The translations under genes and the position numbers were made by a program. A stretch of DNA of 7,963 nt, from IMG/VR virus record IMGVR_UViG_2695420658_000006, one strand, 5' to 3'. The notes under the pieces are model-generated. The model saw only the letters and a list, made by a program, of their open reading frames with translations, did not search any database and had not been told where the DNA came from. Positions 1-7,963 of this stretch are shown one piece after another (within the stretch, counting starts at the first letter, position 1; each line of letters starts with the position of its first letter). This DNA comes from a virus. Taxonomy: Duplodnaviria; Heunggongvirae; Uroviricota; Caudoviricetes.

Positions 1-187
1 AAGCAAGATAAACAATATCGGGCACTCTAGTTTTTATAATTAACAATTAAACGTCCATAAAATGTTATTTACTTTTCTTCGCTATTGTCATACGATTTTT
101 TATTCTTAATCCAAGAACATACTCCCTACCTATAGCAAAATCACTTTTTTAACAAAAGAATAACGTATTTAGGTAATCATTACGAAT

Positions 188-769
188 TTACCCTATAGGT
201 GCTACTGGCCATTCAATATCCGGTGCAGTTGATGTATCAACACGGTTCAGCAACACCCGATACTTTTTCCAAGCTTCCAGCAACAAGGTTTCTTTCTCCG
301 TTGCGATCTCCAGATCCACAGCATCCTGAAGCGGCGCTATATGCTCACTGGCTACCTGCATCAGGCTGTTTTTTGTTTCTTCCGCCTCCCGGATCCGGAA
401 CAGTTTTTCTGCTTCCGTATCCTTCACCCAGGCTGTGCCGTTCCACTTCTGAAACTCCCCTTCCGGGGATAACCAGGTGACATTTTCCGGTAATGAGCCG
501 AGTTCAGAAATAAATAACGCGTCGCCGGAAGCCACGTCATAAACCGTTTTACCCCGATGATCTTCAACGAGATGCCACGATGACTCATCACTGTTGAAAA
601 CAGCCACGAAACCAGCCGGAATATCTGGCGGTGCAATATCGGTACTGTTTGCAGGCAGACCTGTATGAGGCGGAATATATGCGTCACCTTCACCAATAAA
701 TTCATTAGTTCCGGCCAGCAGGTTATAAATTTTTATGGTCCGTGCTTGTTCACTCATTCTGAATGCCAT
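188..769 (-). CDS. tfa: Tail fibre assembly protein (lambda Tfa-like), 193 aa
   Basis: Complete ORF; ATG at 769-767 and TAA at 190-188. Product begins [41 protein letters not shown], which is near-identical along its length to lambda Tfa as recalled from memory. It sits immediately downstream of stf, and its start overlaps the stf stop by 1 nt (TAATG). Confidence 0.9.
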
Positions 770-3700
770 TATGCGAGCCTCACAATATAGTTAAATGCGA
801 TGTTTTTGACGGTGTTTTCCGCGTTACCAGCAGCGTTAACGGTGATGGTGTGTCCATGTGAACCAATCGCAACAGAGTGCGTATGAGCACCAATACCGAC
901 AGTATGCGCGTGTGCACCCGCAGATGCTGCTGTGCCGGACAGTGAGTGTGTATGGTTTCCTTCTGAAGATGATTTACCTACCCATTGGGAGGTGCCACTG
1001 GTTAATGAGCCACTGATACCAACCTGATTAGTCCCGCTAACTTGAGTACTCCCTGCCGGAAACATTCCAGTAGGTTGACTCCCGCTATTCGTTCTGGGCC
1101 CAGTCTGACTATGTTGGTGGGCCCCAGCTGAACTTGTAGAGCCGCTCAGACTGTGCGTATGCGCCCCGGTGTTATTCGTGGATTTAGTGCCGTAATCAAA
1201 CGACGATGTGGTTTTCGTCCCCAAATCCGTACTGGATGCGCTGGCGCTGTGGGTGTGCGATTTAATGCCATCCTGTTCCTGAGACAATACGGCACGACCA
1301 CTGGCGGGCTTGCCCTTAATCGTCCAGCCACGCATATCAGGGATCACGCCTGACGGATAAGCGGCTGCAAGTTTCGGGTAAGCAGATTTGTCAAAAGTCT
1401 GCCCCTGCATCAGGGCATAACCAGACGGAACGGTATCTGATGGCCACGGGATTGGTGCACCGACTGGATAAAACTCTGCAGGAGGATGAGCCGAGGTGTA
1501 AAGCTGCGCCCACGGCGACCAGTTTGCGTCGGTCGTATCCCGTCGTGAACGAATAAATGCCGGAGCATGAGCACCGCTTGTACCACTCCAGCCGATGAGT
1601 AACTCACCTTCGCCAACGGCTGTCATCCCTTTCAGGTGAATGATATTTCCATACGCTGTTGGATATCCGTTGTTATACACCTCGTATAACTCAAGACCTG
1701 CTGCCCCCTGCGTATTGTCTGTCAGCGCGGCTACCCGACCTTTTGAAGCCAGATTAACTGATGATACTGCTGTTCCACCTGACGGTAGCGCCCCGATCTC
1801 TGATGCCGTTGGCTTATTTCTGGAGTTATAGTCCCTTCGCCAGCCAGGTGAATAATCTGTTCCGTGATTAATATAGGTAAACTGGGCGTTGGTTGTTCCG
1901 CCACCGCTGGATGTGGTCGGAGTGGTAATGCGGATCGTCATCGCTGACTTTATCCCCATTACTTCAATGACAGCTCCGGCGAGATGAATATTACCGCAGC
2001 CAGTATCAGTAATGATTTTATTATTGCCATAAGACCAGGAACCCTTGCACATCCAGTATGGATGGTTAAATGCTCCCTGAGAATCCAGCCACTCGATAAA
2101 CTGTGCAGTCGTCCAGTTTCCTGTTGTTGTGCTTACTGACCCACCGAAGGCACGGCAGGCACCAATATTTTTCGTAAAGGTGTCTTTGCCAGGGATATCC
2201 GCACCGTTCTGATCTTTCTGCAGACGTTTCTCAGCATTGTCATTGGCTGCTTTTACTGCCTTTGGCGTTGCCGCCAGCGTTTCAGACGTGCTGTTGGTCG
2301 CGCTGCTTAGCTGGATTATCCCTTTCTGTGCTGTCGTTGCATCCTGTGCGGTGTATTTCCCGTTAGCCAGGTCATACGCGGCCTTAACGGCTTTTGGTGT
2401 TGCCGCCAGTGACTCGGAAGTGCTGTTAGTCGCACTACTGAGCTGTACTATCCCCTTTTTCGTCGTGCTCGCATCCTCAAGCGCCACGGCGGATGCAATA
2501 TCCTCTGCCCGTTTTGCCGCTGTCTCAGCGCGCGTTGCTGCAGATTCCGCCGTACTTTTGCTCTGAGCTGCTGCCGTCGCACTACCAGCAGCCTCTGTCG
2601 CCTTCGTGGATGCCGTCGTGGCGCTGCCCTTCGCTGCTGACGCCTGTCTGGTCGCCTCATCTTTTGAAGCAGACGCCGATGATGCCGATGACGCCGCCGA
2701 ACTGGCGGACGATGCGGCAGCCGTTTTTGAGGATTCTGCACGGGTTTCCGACGCTTTCGCGTTCGTTTCGGATGTCTTCGCTGCGGAAGCTGACCTCGCT
2801 GCTGCCGTGGCCTGCTCAGTGGCTTCGCCAGCCTTCGTTGTGGCTGTTGAAGCGGATGATGCGGCGCTTTCTGCCGATTTTCCGGCGGCGGTGGCACTGG
2901 CTGAGGCCTGCCCGGCACTTGTTGACGCGGCGCTGGCAGACGACGCAGCCGCTGTTTTTGAGCCTGCCGCAGCTGAGGCACTCTGTCCCGCTGCCGTTTC
3001 AGAAGACCTGGCGTTCGTCTCGGACGTTTTGGCCGCCTTCGCAGAATTTGCAGCCGCCGTCGCCGAGGAAGCTGCGCTACTGGCGCTTGATGATGCGTTC
3101 GTTTCTGATGATTTTGCCGCCTCTTTTGAAGCCGACGCATCCCGGGCTGAGGTGGCAGCTTCTGACGCTTTCGTGGTCGCGGTGGATGCAGAAGTGGCTG
3201 CTGATTGTTGTGACGCTGCCGCATTCGTTTCTAACGTTTTCGCCGCACCGGCACTGGTAGCCGCCGCGCTTTTTGAGGACTCTGCAGCGGCAGCACTTTT
3301 TGAGGCTTCAGTGGCCTTTGTTGATGCCGTTCCTGCGCTGGAAGACGCTGACTGAGCCGACGAAGCGGCCTGTCCGGCTGACGTGCTGGCTGCACGTGCT
3401 GAATCTGCAGCATCAGTCGCATGGGTTGCCGCCTCACGGGCTGATGTGCTGGCATCGCTGGCTGATTTCTTCGCGGCTGCCGTGTTCTGTGCCACCGCGG
3501 ACGCGTTACGCGCCACCTCTTCCACCATCAGCTCAAAACGGCGCAGTGCCTCCGGACGGGCATCATCCTCCGTCATGGCACCGAGAAAATCATTCAGCGT
3601 ACCGGGTCGGGAATCTTCATACACGGTGATGGTCCCGGCATGTGACGGCGGGAATCCTTCCACCAACAGAATAACGCTGTACTGACCGTACTCAACGTCC

Positions 3701-3852
3701 ATGCTGTAACGCCCGGCTTCATCCGGATTTTCTGAGGCCAGCGTGTTCACCACCACCGTGGTGCTGTTACGTTTTGCTTTCAGCTGGATTGTGCAGTTCT
3801 GTACCGGTTTTCCTGTGCCGTCTTTCAGTACACCTGAAATCTTTACTGCCAT
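769..3852 (-). CDS. stf: Side tail fibre protein (lambda Stf-like), about 1027 aa
   Basis: Start placed at the ATG at 3852-3850 ([26 protein letters not shown]..., matching the lambda Stf N-terminus) rather than the GTG at 3858 used by the ORF track; a GGGG Shine-Dalgarno-like motif lies 5-8 nt upstream. Stop TAA at 771-769. Contains a long Ala/Ser/Thr-rich low-complexity region, two tail-fibre repeat motifs, and C-terminal His-rich GAHxHS repeats ending ...[18 protein letters not shown], typical of Stf/T4 gp37-like distal fibre tips. Confidence 0.9.
2239..2460 (-). repeat. Two tandem copies of the phage tail-fibre repeat motif within stf (coding repeat)
   Basis: [30 protein letters not shown] (2371-2460) and [30 protein letters not shown] (2239-2328), 30 aa each with a 14-aa spacer. 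Lambda Stf carries one such motif ([24 protein letters not shown]) as I recall it. Confidence 0.8.
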
Positions 3853-3863
3853 ATTCACCCCAC

Positions 3864-3895: not shown

Positions 3896-4219
3896 AACAC
3901 TGTGTTACCTGGCTAATCAGAATTTATAACCGACACCCACGATGAAACCGTCAGTGCGCCAGTCACCACTGCCGGAACCTTCATAAGCAAGGTCAATGGC
4001 CACGGATTCGGTCGGGTTAAACTGCACGCCAGCCCCCCACGCCAGAGACGTGTNNNNNNNNNNNNNNNNNNNNNNNNNNNNNNNNNNNNNNNNNNNNNNN
4101 NNNNNNNNNNNNNNNNNNNNNNNNNNNNNNNNNNNNNNNNNNNNNNNNNNAACACTGTGTTACCTGGCTAATCAGAATTTATAACCGACACCCACGATGA
4201 AACCGTCAGTGCGCCAGAG
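3896..4219 (+). repeat. 69-bp perfect direct repeat (3896-3964 and 4151-4219) flanking the N run 4054-4150
   Basis: Both copies read aacactgtgttacctggctaatcagaatttataaccgacacccacgatgaaaccgtcagtgcgccag. Copy 1 continues into the intact lom 3' end; copy 2 joins directly to agacgtgt, i.e. it lacks the 83 nt at 3963-4045. Confidence 0.9.
3917..4053 (-). CDS. lom: Lom C-terminal segment (3' end of a lom reading frame; upstream part lost in the N run 4054-4150)
   Basis: Minus-strand translation reads ...NTSLAWGAGVQFNPTESVAIDLAYEGSGSGDWRTDGFIVGVGYKF followed by TGA (3919-3917). This matches the lambda Lom C-terminus as recalled, including the terminal aromatic residue typical of outer-membrane beta-barrels. 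Confidence 0.75.
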
Positions 4220-4688
4220 ACGTGTTGCTGTGGCGACCGTCATCACTTCCGGTCAGCACATCGTGCGTTTTCCCCTTATTGTCAGTTACGCGGATATAAT
4301 CCCCGGAAAAAGTCGACACACGGCTGTAAGCCACACCCGCCATCGCATACGCGCTGAACCATTCATTCACGCGCACAGACGGCCCCGCCATCACGCTGAA
4401 CCAGCGGTTACGCACGGAATCTTCATGCCAGCGGGTATCGCTGTAACGGGTCAGCTGGCGATTCTTGTCTCCTGCATAGCTGAATGACGTCACCAGCCCC
4501 AGCGTATCCGTAAACTCATAACGGTATTTCACGTTAATCCCGTTCAGATCATCACTGCCGGGAACGTTGGTCCGGGCATGAAGATACCCCGCGCTCAGCG
4601 TGGACTGATGTTCAGACGCCCATGCAGGCGCACCGGATACGGCCAGGCAAATGGCTGCGGACAAAATGGCTGCACAAACTTTACGCAT
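4206..4688 (-). pseudogene. lom: Lom/Ail-family outer-membrane protein, C-terminally truncated copy (160 aa; possible pseudogene or contig-join artefact)
   Basis: ATG at 4688-4686 with a GAGAGG Shine-Dalgarno motif 5 nt upstream. Signal peptide MRKVCAAILSAAICLAVSGAPAWA, then a mature region close to lambda Lom. The frame ends ...RHSNTSLAH-stop at 4206, where lambda-like Lom continues ...SLAWGAGVQFNPT...GYKF. The break is an 83-nt deletion between two cgccag direct repeats. Confidence 0.8.
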
Positions 4689-4710
4689 AATTACCTCTCG
4701 CTTTTCTGCA

Positions 4711-4736
4711 ATAAAAAAGGCACCATTTCTGGTGCC
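4711..4736 (-). terminator. Putative Rho-independent terminator between the J 3' end and the lom start
   Basis: On the minus strand: 6-bp stem (GGCACC / GGUGCC, plus 4719-4724 and 4731-4736), 6-nt loop, followed by a U-rich tract (plus 4711-4718 ataaaaaa). It sits about 23 nt upstream of the lom ATG. The upstream context is hidden by the N run starting at 4741. Confidence 0.5.
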
Positions 4737-5015
4737 CGTANNNNNNNNNNNNNNNNNNNNNNNNNNNNNNNNNNNNNNNNNNNNNNNNNNNNNNNNNNNN
4801 NNNNNNNNNNNNNNNNNNNNNNNNNNNNNNNNNNNNNNNNNNNNNNNNNNNNNNNNNNNNNNNNNNNNNNNNNNNNNNNNNNNNNNNNNNNNNNNNNNNN
4901 NNNNNNNNNNNNNNNNNNNNNNNNNNNNNNNNNNNNNNNNNNNNNNNNNNNNNNNNNNNNNNNNNNNNNNNNNNNNNNNNNNNNNNNNNNNNNNNNNNNN
5001 NNNNNNNNNNNNNNN

Positions 5016-5409
5016 ACCCGTGTATCGCGTGCCTCCTGGGTTATTTCCGCTCCCCGGATCGTCATACGCTATACCGTTAAAAATAATGGGCGGAATAATA
5101 ATCTGGCGGTCAAAGTTATGATCATCGCTTATGGTGACTGTAACCGTCCCGTTTGGTGTTTCCGTGTTACCCCACGTACCAGCCTGTTTCGGAAATGATT
5201 TGGATACAGCTTTAACGAAGTCACCTCTGACCTGAGTCGCCTCCAGCATGCCCTTAATCGTACAGTTTTCATTTACCGTGACATTGTTGAGCGTCCCGGC
5301 GTTCGCATTCACACTGCCACTGATATCCGCATTTTTAGCGGTCAGCTTTCCGTCCGGAGTCAGGGAAAATGCCGATGGATTTCCACCGCTGGTAATGGTG
5401 GGGGCCGTC
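5016..5409 (-). CDS. J: J C-terminal region segment (segment C), partial, bounded by N runs on both sides
   Basis: Minus-strand translation [75 protein letters not shown]...[21 protein letters not shown]...GGTRYTG is colinear with the receptor-binding C-terminal part of lambda J as recalled. No stop is visible; the J stop presumably lies in the N run 4741-5015. Confidence 0.75.
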
Positions 5410-5628
5410 NNNNNNNNNNNNNNNNNNNNNNNNNNNNNNNNNNNNNNNNNNNNNNNNNNNNNNNNNNNNNNNNNNNNNNNNNNNNNNNNNNNNNNNNNNN
5501 NNNNNNNNNNNNNNNNNNNNNNNNNNNNNNNNNNNNNNNNAATAAATATTGTTATTCTTCCGCTCATGTTTAGCACCGCGAAACGCCACCGCGGGAATAA
5601 CAATNNNNNNNNNNNNNNNNNNNNNNNN

Positions 5629-6349
5629 CATAAACCCTGACGGTAATGGTCCCTGATGGCCACCTCTCCGGTGCCCGGGAGTCCCGTGGGAAAGGTTTGC
5701 CCACTGTTTTAACGAGATCGCCTTCAATCTGGTTCGCGGACAATTTTCCCAGAACCCGACAGTTCTTATTAATCGTGACGTTGTTGAGCGTCCCGGAGTT
5801 CGCGTTCACGTTACCGCTGATATCGGCATTTTTCGCCGTCAGCCGTCCGCCAGGTGTCAGGGAAAATGCCGGAGGATTACCGCCGCTGGTAATGGTCGGA
5901 GCCGTCAGGCATTTCAGGAACACGTCGTTCATGAATATCTGATCGCCCTGACCAACAAACATCGGCTTTGTGTTGCCATTCGCAGGATTAATCATCGCAA
6001 TCCTGTCTGCCGCCAGCAGCACCTGACTCTGCATTCCTGCTGGCGTATTCTCAATACCGGCACCGATACCCGCAATATAAAGGCGTCCGTCCTTCATCTG
6101 TTGCAGCTTCACAGCCCACATGCTGTTCAGGTTATTATTTGTATCAACCTGAACTTTCTGTATCTGCTGGATTGCAGCACTCTGATTTTCCAGTTTTTTA
6201 TTNNNNNNNNNNNNNNNNCTGACATTCGTAATGGACGTCCTGATTTCAGTCAGGTCCGGCGCAAGCTGACCGTTATCAATCTGCGTCCACAACTCCTTGC
6301 CGAGATGCGTTTTATTGATCAACCCTTTATAAAAATTCAGATAACCTTC
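5629..6349 (-). CDS. J: J segment (segment B): divergent second copy of the central to C-terminal J region, partial, with an internal N16
   Basis: Minus-strand translation [43 protein letters not shown][N16][56 protein letters not shown]...[41 protein letters not shown]...[11 protein letters not shown]. It duplicates the end of segment A (roughly 90% nt identity by eye) and the start of segment C (roughly 80%), and is in a different codon phase from both. Confidence 0.75.
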
Positions 6350-6579
6350 NNNNNNNNNNNNNNNNNNNNNNNNNNNNNNNNNNNNNNNNNNNNNNNNNNN
6401 NNNNNNNNNNNNNNNNNNNNNNNNNNNNNNNNNNNNNNNNNNNNNNNNNNNNNNNNNNNNNNNNNNNNNNNNNNNNNNNNNNNNNNNNNNNNNNNNNNNN
6501 NNNNNNNNNNNNNNNNNNNNNNNNNNNNNNNNNNNNNNNNNNNNNNNNNNNNNNNNNNNNNNNNNNNNNNNNNNNNNNN

Positions 6580-7963
6580 ATACCCGCGATATAAAGGCGT
6601 CCGTCCTGCATCTGCTGCAGCTTCACAGCCCACATGCTGTTCAGGTTATTATTTGTATCAACCTGAACCTTCTGTATCTGCTGAATTGCCGCACTCTGGT
6701 CTTCCAGTTTCTTATTGACGGTCTGCGTGATTTCATTGCTGACATCCGTAATGGACGTCCTGATTTCAGCCAGGTCAGGCGCAAGCTGACCGTTATCAAT
6801 CTGCGTCCACAGCTCCTGAGCCAGATGGGTTTTCCCTATCTCGCCTTTGAAAAAATCCAGATAACCGGATGCATCATCACTCGGCTGACCAACAGCCTCC
6901 ACGAATGCCGATTTGCCAACGGTGTTCACACTGCGGATATAAAAGTAATAATCATGGCCCGGTTTGATATTGATACTGGCGGCTATCCAGTACAGCGCCG
7001 TGCCAAGATAGCGTGCTGTGGTTTCAACCTGCCTGATATCCGCAATCCGCTTTTCCGAGAACCAGAACTCAAACTGTACCGTCGGATCATAAACCGCAAG
7101 ATGCGGCGTGGCGGTTATCTGAAAATAGCCCGGCGTCAGCTCAATCCGCGACAGCGCTGCCGGTGCGGCAATCCGGAACGATACCGACGCCGGATCGCCC
7201 TGCTGCCCCCACGCATTTACTGCCCGGACTGTCAGCCTGTAGTTCCCCAGCGCCAGTTGTGTGAAGCGGTAAGTGGTTTCCGTCGTCCGGGCCGTGCTGA
7301 CCAGCCGCTCACTGCCGTCATCCGCTGTTACGGTCAGACGGAGCAGGAAGCTCACGCCCTTCACCACCTTCGGCGTGTCCCAGCGCGCCAGCACCTGATA
7401 TTCCCCGCTGTCTGCGGTGACTTCGGCAGTCAGGTGCTGCACCGCTGGCGGCGTGACACCATTCACCGTGCCGCTCTGGTCGCCGTCAAAGTGCGCCCCG
7501 TTATCCACGATGGCTTCTTTTTCCGGCACATGCTGCACGGCGGTGATGGCATACGTGCCGTCGTCGTTCTCACGGATACTCACGCAGCGGAACAATCGCT
7601 GGTGCAGCGTCGGCAGCTTCAGCCCCCACACGCTGTATTCAGCAACACCGTCAGGAACACGGCTCACTTTTACCTTCACGCCGTCGGTGACGGACTGGAC
7701 CTCCACGCTGACCGGATTCCCCTGCCCGTCAACCAGGCTTATCAGCGTGGTGCCGGAGGATGGCAGCGTGATTTCACGGTCGAGCGTCAGCGTCCGGGTC
7801 TGGCTGTTCACCGCCAGCACGCGCCCGCCGGTGCGGATACCGGCATAGTCATCATCGCAGATTTCAATGACATCGCCCGGTACATGACGAAGCCCTTCAG
7901 CACCCACGCTGAAATCCACGGTCTGCGTCTCCAGCAGTTCCGTTTTAATCAGCCACAGCCCGG
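6580..7963 (-). CDS. J: Host-specificity / tail-tip protein J, 5'-partial (continues beyond the window end), interrupted 3' by the N run 6350-6579
   Basis: The open frame runs off the window at 7963 (...[67 protein letters not shown]...). The fibronectin-III-like central region ([29 protein letters not shown]...) and ...[57 protein letters not shown]...DGRLYIAG match lambda J architecture as recalled. The M at 7919 in the ORF track is an internal GTG, not the start. Confidence 0.85.

Follow-up and report, generated by a model that had tools for sequence, protein, structure and literature searches.

A mosaic insert with two probable shaft knobs in the distal side tail fibre protein of a lambdoid phage

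The stf gene of this phage raises the question of what occupies the stretch between its fibre repeats and its tip, where some 260 residues do not resemble phage lambda, and whether that stretch selects the receptor on the host. The window analysed here is a 7,963-nucleotide piece of DNA of a tailed phage (IMG/VR record IMGVR_UViG_2695420658_000006), and the features around stf are collected in Table 1; positions 1462-2238, minus strand, which encode Stf residues 541-799, are called the block below. Our main reading, to which we assign a probability of roughly 80%, is that the block entered the distal half of a lambdoid Stf as a mosaic insert, made up of a conserved linker and two tandem shaft knobs of the P2/P1/Mu type. 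The block is an ordinary, widely shared knob pair, and as an instance of the well-known mosaicism of tail fibres it is nothing new.

Table 1. Segments of the stf region (window positions; Stf residues are counted from the GTG codon)
Feature	Positions	Strand	Stf residues	Basis and remarks
stf open reading frame	769-3858	minus	1029 aa	counted from GTG
N-terminal baseplate-attachment domain	3451..3852	minus	3-136	Pfam phage_tail_N, E 1.4e-71
Ala/Ser/Thr-rich repetitive shaft	2479..3450	minus	~137-460	homologue of the lambda Stf shaft
Two Phage_fiber_2 repeats, KGI(V/I)...(S/T)...	2239..2477	minus		Pfam PF03406, E 6e-37, two stretches
Conserved linker	2161..2238	minus	541-566	alignments to 8JU3, P2 H and P1 Sv'
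Knob A	1801..2160	minus	~567-686	carries Cys568, Cys604 and Cys621; one helix and beta strands predicted
Inter-knob linker	1753..1800	minus	687-702	mosaic joint; P2 and Mu homology stops; pLDDT <50
Knob B	1489..1752	minus	~703-790	predicted six-strand antiparallel beta domain
Junction before the collar	1462..1488	minus	791-799	last non-lambda residues; lambda homology from 1461
Collar domain	1318..1461	minus	800-847	Pfam Collar PF07484, E 7e-12; common to lambda Stf and T4 gp37
His-rich needle and receptor-binding tip	772..1317	minus		T4 gp37 tip homologue; PDB 2XGF, E 1e-81, residues 796-1029
tfa	188..769	minus		tail fibre assembly chaperone for a gp37-like tip; 92.8% nucleotide identity to lambda orf-194 (tfa)

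The stf gene and the limits of the block

Lambda Stf begins with MAVKISG, which makes the ATG at residue 3 (window 3852) the probable true start of the protein. Counted from this ATG, the block cysteines 568, 604 and 621 become 566, 602 and 619, exactly the numbers given in a preliminary description of the locus made from its letters, and the translation quoted there is that of the block. Six of the 11 Stf tryptophans also lie in the block. In the N-terminal half, residues 3-96 match PDB 9E7M (a tail fiber protein chain, E 1e-51), residues 1-328 align with lambda at 85% by tblastn, and the shaft contains a family of 46-nt direct repeats (D1) at a GC content of 0.59-0.64. The 107-nt fibre repeat (D2) is present in two copies, at 2371-2477 and 2239-2345, with a period of 132 nt, and the upper block edge at 2238 adjoins the second of them. 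Four short open reading frames (1640-1831 and 1984-2139 on the plus strand, 1410-1616 and 1731-1904 on the minus strand) were considered as genes nested in the block and were rejected, on account of their small size and of the strong conservation that the Stf frame shows along them. An Rfam scan found nothing within the block.

Comparison with lambda sets the limits of the insert. By tblastn, the lambda stf region matches only Stf residues 1-501 and 797-1029, and residues 502-796 are unmatched; at the DNA level, the homology ends within the second Phage_fiber_2 repeat (window 2252-2345) and restarts exactly at window 1461, the first base past the block. These two comparisons leave residues 541-799 with no lambda counterpart. 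The preliminary description had stated the difference from lambda correctly, and its reservation that the block might be present in lambda Stf itself falls away. Ur-lambda Stf, that is, orf-401 plus orf-314 of lambda PaPa, shares with the present protein the N-terminal domain, the Ala/Ser-rich shaft, the first fibre repeat, the collar, the His-rich needle and Tfa. It differs in the sequence of the tip loop and in having ~150 unrelated residues (LDSPALTGTPTAPTA ... GAGENSAFPA) between fibre repeat and collar, a place taken in the Stf described here by a second repeat, the linker and both knobs. The traits of an Ur-lambda Stf orthologue are present (a phage_tail_N N-terminus, a gp37-like collar and needle, and tfa downstream); collinear homology to Ur-lambda Stf along the whole protein fails.

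The block is widely distributed. About 800 of 5426 complete E. coli genomes have it at no less than 95% identity over at least 80% of its length, and at E<=1e-3 it matches 1029 clusters of 50% identity, many of them with two to six matched stretches. As to which phages share it, a point left for checking in the preliminary description, 149 phage records match. The lambdoid phages PhiR68_2, PhiR29_1/2, PhiR42_1, mEp460_ev081 and Salmonella phage SPF_0923 have the same Stf architecture, as do Qin-site prophages of E. coli such as that of strain NH-21, with blocks 97.7-100% identical (99.6% in PhiR68_2 and 100% in NH-21).

These relatives also bear on whether the non-lambda stretch is an artefact, arising where the assembly of a gapped scaffold fused two prophage fibres into a chimera. 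The window does contain six runs of N, and its J and lom region has overlapping, duplicated pieces, with the overlapping J fragments in 4054-6579. However, stf itself is free of N runs, the same architecture recurs in 800 complete genomes, and the matches of stf to PhiR68_2 (unbroken over 2735 nt, 98.1%) and to NH-21 (2717 nt, 96.9%) cross both block edges. Because the block lies inside the unbroken PhiR68_2 match, N runs and scaffold problems elsewhere leave it unaffected. The artefact reading is refuted by these matches and genomes, and we give it practically no weight.

Two knobs with separate relatives

Outside lambda, the block has relatives in P2 gpH, P1 Sv', P7, D6, SSU5 and the S' fibres of Mu and D108. 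The linker motif QNGADIP(G/N)K, at Stf residues 544-566, is also found in 8JU3, P2 H and P1 Sv', and in the fibres of P2, P1 and Mu, knob A always has the linker before it. The PDB entry 8JU3, the structure of the Mu G(-) tail fibre S' (gp52), is reportedly that of Mori et al. from 2024 (Virology 593:110017, as cited in PMC11821841). Knob A matches it with a phmmer domain E value of 1.3e-70, in an alignment that spans Stf 544-725 and 8JU3 residues ~178-320 and is gapless in the knob core. In P2 H the nucleotide identity to Stf is 77.7% over aa 461-684, ending where knob A ends, and D108 homology extends to aa 685; P1 Sv' matches knob A at 76.9% nucleotide identity over aa 546-680 (66.8% aa identity), and its knob B homology starts from aa 707.

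Structure prediction, a check suggested in the preliminary description, leads with AF2 and Foldseek from knob A to 8JU3 and from knob B to fibre knobs with weak E values. In the model of the whole 259-residue block (mean pLDDT 59.7), the knob A part reaches 72-87, and the linkers and knob B are unreliable. The predicted knob A fold matches 8JU3 with E 1e-17 and probability 1.00; taken over the whole model, TM reaches only 0.40, owing to the poor placement of the linkers and knob B. Modelled alone, knob B reaches a pLDDT of 81.3 and a pTM of 0.72, with six strands. Its best 12 Foldseek matches in the PDB are all fibre knobs, of T4 gp34 (5NXH, 4UXG, 4UXE), of pyocins (6CL5, 6CL6) and of 8JU3, and these matches are weak, with probabilities of 0.97-1.00 but E values of 6e-3 to 0.1 and TM of 0.39-0.58; on 8JU3 the model superposes with TM 0.52 and an rmsd of 3.8 A over 93 columns. 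The best of them, R1/R2 pyocin Knob1 and Knob2 (6CL5, 6CL6) and the globular domains of T4 gp34 (4UXG, 5NXH), share 15-17% sequence identity with knob B, a likeness that comes from the prediction of a monomer; they are small antiparallel beta domains of five to six strands, arranged in tandem along a trimeric fibre (PMC6116203). In BFVD, knob B finds tail fibres of unrelated phages, namely the Goslar fibre at 75% identity and gp37 of Acinetobacter phages 133 and Acj9, and its aa identity to P1 Sv' is 63.5%.

Domain databases are less informative for both knobs. At residues 656-715, where knob A ends and the linker follows, the Pfam family Gp34_trimer (PF21446) scores 18.3 bits (E 0.0034), short of its gathering threshold of 27 bits, and it gives no match once the knobs are scanned one by one. 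A 12-sequence profile of knob B found no match in the PDB even at E<=10, and knob B has no Pfam match, gp37_C (PF12604) included. The latter family describes the second knob of P2 H (32.2 bits) and of Mu S' (24.8 bits in D108 S'); in hhalign, knob B aligns with this Mu/P2 second knob in the C-terminal 29 columns only, at a probability of 70%. NCBIfam matches neither Stf nor the block, and no Pfam or NCBIfam model exceeds its threshold over the block. The preliminary description had allowed that the block might match some common tail-fibre domain already annotated; it does so by way of PDB 8JU3 and the PHROG tail-fibre families, but not by way of Pfam or NCBIfam.

Knob A and knob B have no similarity to each other in BLASTP (E>1), so no recent internal duplication gave rise to the block. 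Their order varies among proteins: B precedes A in P1 Sv' and many E. coli proteins, Photorhabdus proteins have the order A-A, and in other proteins A is followed by a different knob, assigned to gp37_C by Pfam. The block is not one domain; it comprises a linker and two knob modules that have been shuffled independently. The idea of a swapped-in mosaic segment rather than something new, put forward in the preliminary description, agrees with its absence from lambda and its presence in P2, P1 and Mu fibres and in lambdoid phages, whereas the notion of a single domain does not hold.

Each known system shares only a part of this arrangement. In Mu S' (8JU3), the linker and knob A align residue for residue with Stf, and a second knob follows knob A in both. 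However, the second knob of Mu belongs to another sequence family, the gp37_C one, with just its last 29 columns alignable to knob B, and neither the tip nor the chaperone U' of Mu is related to the gp37-like needle and Tfa found here. P2 gpH is like Stf in its collinear succession of Phage_fiber_2 repeats, linker and knob A; unlike Stf, it has an N-terminus of the Phage_tail_fib type (PF12571), more fibre repeats (at least four, against two here and one in lambda), a Mu-type second knob and an unrelated tip. P1 Sv' and Sv (the variable parts of the C-segment fibre), P7, D6 and SSU5 hold both knob B and knob A, but in the reverse order: B, spacer repeats, A, a Mu-type knob and the tip.

The P1 fibre is that of a myovirus, with Sv' and Sv in a Cin-invertible segment, and the Mu fibre lies within an invertible segment with gix sites, in contrast to the window, which has none. 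A search of the window for the gix/cix/pix crossover site (AAACCNNGGTTT core) found no copy with one mismatch allowed, and the gix-encoded peptide NLGLQ is absent from Stf. With no Gin/Cin/Pin crossover site in the window, switching by an invertase of the Mu G, P1 C or e14 P type is unsupported.

Missing Pfam and NCBIfam models at threshold, together with the cysteines, could be taken to mean that the block is a new prophage-specific domain with a cysteine-based redox or metal function. Among 76 distinct knob A sequences, positions 604 and 621 are C/C in 74 and jointly M/V in the other two, and positions 606 and 629 covary (G/A in 41, C/C in 31). However, 12 of the 76 have A, G, S or Y in place of Cys568, and the covariation comes from related sequences and would fit a simple structural disulfide or packed pair equally well as catalysis. 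The novelty of the block is refuted by the near-identical copies in NH-21, PhiR68_2 and hundreds of genomes and by the presence of knob A in a solved fibre structure, so that we regard a new functional domain as highly improbable.

Structural role of the knobs and choice of receptor

The block most likely acts as a trimeric shaft and folding module. The insert is spliced between an N-terminal half of the lambda type on one side and, on the other, a lambda/T4 gp37-type collar and needle tip with the chaperone Tfa. Knob A with the preceding fibre repeat and linker corresponds to the module of P2 gpH, P1 Sv' and Mu S', and knob B to the one that lies early in the Sv and Sv' segments of P1. By analogy with solved knob-containing fibres, each chain may contribute a small antiparallel beta-sheet to each knob, three of which would pack round the fibre axis, and two such globular knobs in tandem would thicken and lengthen the trimeric shaft. 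Such packing could provide stable nuclei for trimerisation and folding as well as rigid beads along the shaft. In R-pyocin fibres, which are homologues of P2 fibres, tandem antiparallel knobs of five to six strands have been proposed to aid trimer folding (PMC6116203). Moreover, engineered lambda-P2 Stf chimeras are functional (PMC11338833), and horizontal exchange of stf genes among unrelated phages has long been documented (PMC3945230 and references therein). The text of the paper on Gifsy-1 Stf contains none of the domain and binding terms that we sought in it.

The receptor of lambda Stf is of the OmpC type. In the phage described here, the receptor would be picked by the variable tip and not by the block: the T4 gp37-like tip together with the downstream Tfa (tfaQ in E. 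coli genome annotations) is the most likely determinant of the choice. Knob A is ~75-85% identical across fibres with differing tips, hosts and receptors (E. coli, Yersinia, Salmonella, Photorhabdus), and therefore it cannot discriminate hosts. The lambdoid relatives differ from the present Stf only in a hypervariable tip segment (aa ~906-968) and in the number of Ala/Ser repeats; in PhiR68_2 and NH-21 the match to Stf is broken from aa 906-912 to aa 965-969. Both the conservation of knob A and the location of these differences speak against the proposal of the preliminary description that the block sets receptor specificity.

A different role in adsorption can be considered, in which the knobs form an auxiliary receptor-binding region, one or both of them binding a conserved envelope saccharide such as the LPS core. 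This would add a second contact ~100 A from the tip, orienting the fibre or raising reversible adsorption. Knob-like domains recur in saccharide-binding fibres and tailspikes, and the abundance of Trp and Tyr in the block is a frequent trait of sugar-binding sites. The second knob of R pyocins is among their two most variable regions, hence a putative binding region (PMC6116203), and for the knob A carriers P2 gpH and the Mu(-) fibre the receptor is the LPS core (PMC11338833, PMC11821841). However, the conservation of knob A over differing tips, hosts and receptors argues against such a role, as does the fact that lambda Stf works without the block, and we consider it unlikely. A more specific version also appears doubtful, in which the conserved knob A, perhaps together with knob B, serves as a generic secondary adhesin that recognises a conserved sugar of the LPS inner core and is stabilised outside the cell by a Cys604-Cys621 disulfide. 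If true, Stf would touch the cell at two separate places, with the knob on LPS and the tip on a porin, an arrangement also proposed for R-pyocin fibres, and insert-bearing lambdoid phages would adsorb unlike lambda.

Under the preferred reading of the block as a shaft insert, its significance is small beyond annotation. Knobs A and B are very common yet have no Pfam or NCBIfam model, and curated domain models with 8JU3 and the knob B family as seeds would give better annotation to thousands of entries now named "phage tail protein". The joints at about aa 541, 686-703 and 790-800 may serve as natural fusion points for the engineering of chimeric Stf proteins. Overall, this Stf offers a worked example of mosaicism, in which P2/Mu-type and P1-type knobs stand, with sharp joints, between a lambda-type base and a gp37-type tip.

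Layout of the window and departure from lambda Stf

The minus strand of the window encodes the right-hand end of a lambdoid tail module; the window's six runs of N all lie within 4054-6579, with none inside stf. As called by the ORF finder, stf opens with a GTG (MNMAVK..., window 3850-3858), from which residues are numbered here. Met1 of lambda Stf (MAVKISG) lines up with the next ATG, where PDB 9E7M, a tail fiber protein chain of 94 residues that matches the Stf N-terminus and agrees in sequence with the beginning of lambda orf-401, begins too; the true start is therefore probably the ATG at window 3852.

Features of the window and segments of Stf with their closest matches
Feature	Position	Strand	Match or remark
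J, C-terminal part		minus	interrupted by N runs
J segment	window 6580-7963		PhiR68_2 J nt 1494-2877, 96%
J segment	window 5708-6347		PhiR68_2 J 2590-3235, 85%
J segment	window 5016-5409		PhiR68_2 J 3037-3430, 92%
lom		minus	same tail module as J, stf and tfa
stf	window 769-3858	minus	
tfa	window 188-769	minus	
phage_tail_N	Stf 3-136		Pfam
Phage_fiber_2 repeats, two	from Stf 464		Pfam
Linker	Stf 541-566	minus	
Knob A	Stf ~567-686	minus	
Short linker	between knob A and knob B		
Knob B	Stf ~703-790	minus	
Collar	Stf 800-847		Pfam
P2 gpH (nucleotide)	Stf 461-684		77.7%; stops at end of first globular module
D108 S' (nucleotide)	Stf 547-685		74.4%
P1 Sv' (protein)	Stf 503-689		Sv' 168-358, 66.8%
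P1 Sv' (protein)	Stf 684-789		Sv' 47-153, 63.6%

The block singled out in the preliminary description as unlike lambda Stf is present as quoted at window 1462-2238, corresponding to Stf residues 541-799; the cysteine positions given for it (566, 602 and 619) are exact if numbering begins at the ATG, two codons after the GTG, and become 568, 604 and 621 from the GTG. The lack of resemblance to lambda is confirmed. Comparison with the lambda stf region by tblastn matched residues 1-328 (85%), 317-501 (59%) and 797-1029 (70%), and gave no match between residues 501 and 797; this failed collinearity rules out a full orthologue of lambda Stf. In the DNA, homology to lambda is lost inside the second fibre repeat (window 2252-2345). 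It returns at window 1461, next to the lower edge of the block (1462); the upper edge (2238) adjoins the fibre repeat's second copy (2239-2345). At the counterpart position lambda, read across the known frameshift of its stf region, has a different segment of ~150 aa (LDSPALTGTPTAPTALRGTNNTQIANTAFV ... GAGENSAFPA).

The J region (window 4054-7963) holds three partly overlapping J C-terminal segments with N runs between them and looks like a gapped scaffold; either several lambdoid prophages have been mis-scaffolded here, or alternative receptor-binding cassettes of J are stacked. The lom-stf intergenic piece (window 3896-4217) appears twice, before and after the N run 4054-4150. Window 4151-4217 equals positions 5277-5343 of the locus in E. 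coli strain NH-21, which are also covered by a long match starting at window 4048, and this double match points to an assembly overlap. The block itself is not an assembly artefact, since the match to the lambdoid phage PhiR68_2 is unbroken across both of its edges.

Downstream of tfa, window 1-187 is AT-rich (GC 0.34); in PhiR68_2 and NH-21 tfa is succeeded by the invertase gene pinQ, of which the window stops short. A full-length match to Rfam IS009 (RF02111; window 228-426, minus strand, 218 bits, gathering score 117) falls wholly within the tfa coding sequence. Over the Ala/Ser-rich part of stf (window 2448-3355, both strands) there are other-frame and opposite-strand ORFs of 249-258 aa, with low-complexity translations rich in Arg/Pro or Ala/Asp; most likely these are compositional by-products of GC-rich repetitive codons and not genes.

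Composition and distribution of the block

The search for an annotated domain in the block had a divided outcome: two dozen PHROGs tail-fibre families and a solved structure were matched, whereas Pfam returned Gp34_trimer alone, below threshold (18.3 bits vs a cutoff of 27), and the NCBIfam scan had no matches. We regard the PDB sequence match as decisive for the identity of the block: 8JU3_A aligns to Stf 544-725 (E 1.3e-70), almost without gaps up to residue 690. The phage Mu entry carries the name "Tail fiber protein S, Tail fiber protein S'" and represents the Mu G(-) fibre (gp52), for which PMC11821841 cites Mori et al. 2024. Beyond the block, Stf 796-1029 corresponds to the T4 gp37 needle tip (PDB 2XGF, E 1e-81).

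In P1 Sv' the match to the second half of the block lies upstream of that to the first half, the reverse of the order in Stf. Among 120 database homologues, the halves occur joined in the Stf order or in reverse order; in other arrangements the first half stands alone and is followed by a different module, and in Photorhabdus homologues it is duplicated in tandem. These arrangements, together with the limits of the P2, D108 and P1 matches, divide the block into a linker, knob A, a short linker and knob B. Comparison of knob A with knob B detected no similarity. In two partial E. coli fibre proteins (P0018 and P0019), block residue 96 is joined to ~168, from mid knob A to a point before knob B, with half of knob A and the linker missing; these fibres may have arisen by deletion or may come from a pseudogene.

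Judged by these matches, Stf is a natural lambda/P2/P1 fibre chimera. Chimeras of this type have been on record ever since the fibre genes of P2, P1, Mu, lambda and T-even phages were first compared (work cited in PMC3945230), and engineered lambda-P2 Stf fusions recreate them on purpose (PMC11338833). An invertase-switched segment was ruled out, there being no gix-like site in the window. The proposal of a swapped-in domain rather than anything new thus holds: sequence, architecture and the structure of knob A are already publicly recorded, and the finding is therefore ordinary.

Block protein identity is 97.7-99.6% in the lambdoid phages PhiR68_2, PhiR29_1/2, PhiR42_1, PhiR26_1 and mEp460_ev081, and likewise in Salmonella phage SPF_0923; 149 phage records match. 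Of 5426 complete E. coli genomes, 800 carry at least 80% of the block DNA, mostly at no less than 95% identity. NH-21 is the single genome among them with the block at 100%; there it belongs to an ordinary prophage end (J-lom-stf-tfaQ-pinQ) located at the Qin site. E. coli K-12 strains (e.g., J53) keep the final 269 nt, 100% identical, where the annotation reads nohA and "phage tail protein"; this looks like a truncated fibre remnant with only the end of knob B. An exhaustive HMMER search gave 1029 clusters (50% identity) at E<=1e-3, with matched proteins of up to 3594 aa, often carrying several matched stretches.

Folds and cysteines of the knobs

Modelled whole with AF2, the block came out poorly (overall pLDDT 59.7), with a decent knob A part (72-87); Foldseek matched the model to 8JU3 (E 1e-17), then weakly to fibres of R pyocins and to T4 gp34. 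At sequence level knob B is linked to no solved structure, even by a family profile, and it aligns to the Mu/P2 second knob over the last 29 columns only. Modelled alone with 23 homologues, it gave a confident six-strand all-beta domain (pLDDT 81.3, pTM 0.72), whose best 12 PDB matches are every one a globular fibre shaft domain, among them T4 gp34 (5NXH, 4UXG and 4UXE; TM up to 0.58), R2 and R1 pyocin fibres (6CL6 and 6CL5) and 8JU3 (TM 0.52, rmsd 3.8 A). Its matches in a viral structure library were the fibre of Goslar, a jumbo phage (75% identity), those of Acinetobacter phages 133 and Acj9, which are gp37-like, and many more. Buth et al. described exactly such an element in R-pyocin fibres, a tandem pair of knob domains, each with five or six antiparallel strands; the crystallised pyocin fragment corresponds to P2 fibre residues 291-669 (PMC6116203).

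In 76 distinct knob A sequences, positions 604 and 621 (window 1972-2050 encodes residues 604-629) are both Cys in 74 and jointly M/V in two, and positions 606 and 629 covary as G/A (41), C/C (31), G/C (3) and G/V (1). Cys568 is dispensable, being replaced by A, G, S or Y in 12. The covariation suggests that these residues are paired in space, possibly as disulfides, with one disulfide or packed pair at 604/621 and a second at 606/629 in P2/P1-type variants. The sequences are mutually related and the evidence is that of covariation, so this pairing is something we infer.

Probable roles of the knobs and the tip

The lambda-type N-terminal half would fix the fibre to the tail, and the gp37-type collar, His-rich needle and tip, with Tfa-assisted folding, would contact the receptor, which for lambda Stf is OmpC (PMC11338833). 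For the inserted knobs, the most likely role is that of rigid, self-trimerising beads that would lengthen the distal shaft, and three points favour it: the conservation of knob A among fibres that differ in tip and host is too high for a specificity determinant, the lambda fibre is functional without the block, and Stf differs from its 96-98% identical relatives only in the tip segment (aa ~906-968). The specificity role first proposed for the block is not borne out. Knob domains also occur in T4 gp34 and saccharide-binding tailspikes, and were suggested by Buth et al. to aid trimer folding (PMC6116203); the main rival to the role of shaft-lengthening beads is a generic secondary sugar-binding site. 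Within the gp37-like tip, the stf genes of PhiR68_2 and NH-21, otherwise 96-98% identical, lose DNA similarity at window ~955-1141 (Stf aa ~906-968), regaining it at aa ~965-969, and this hypervariable segment is the likely receptor-specificity loop of the fibre.
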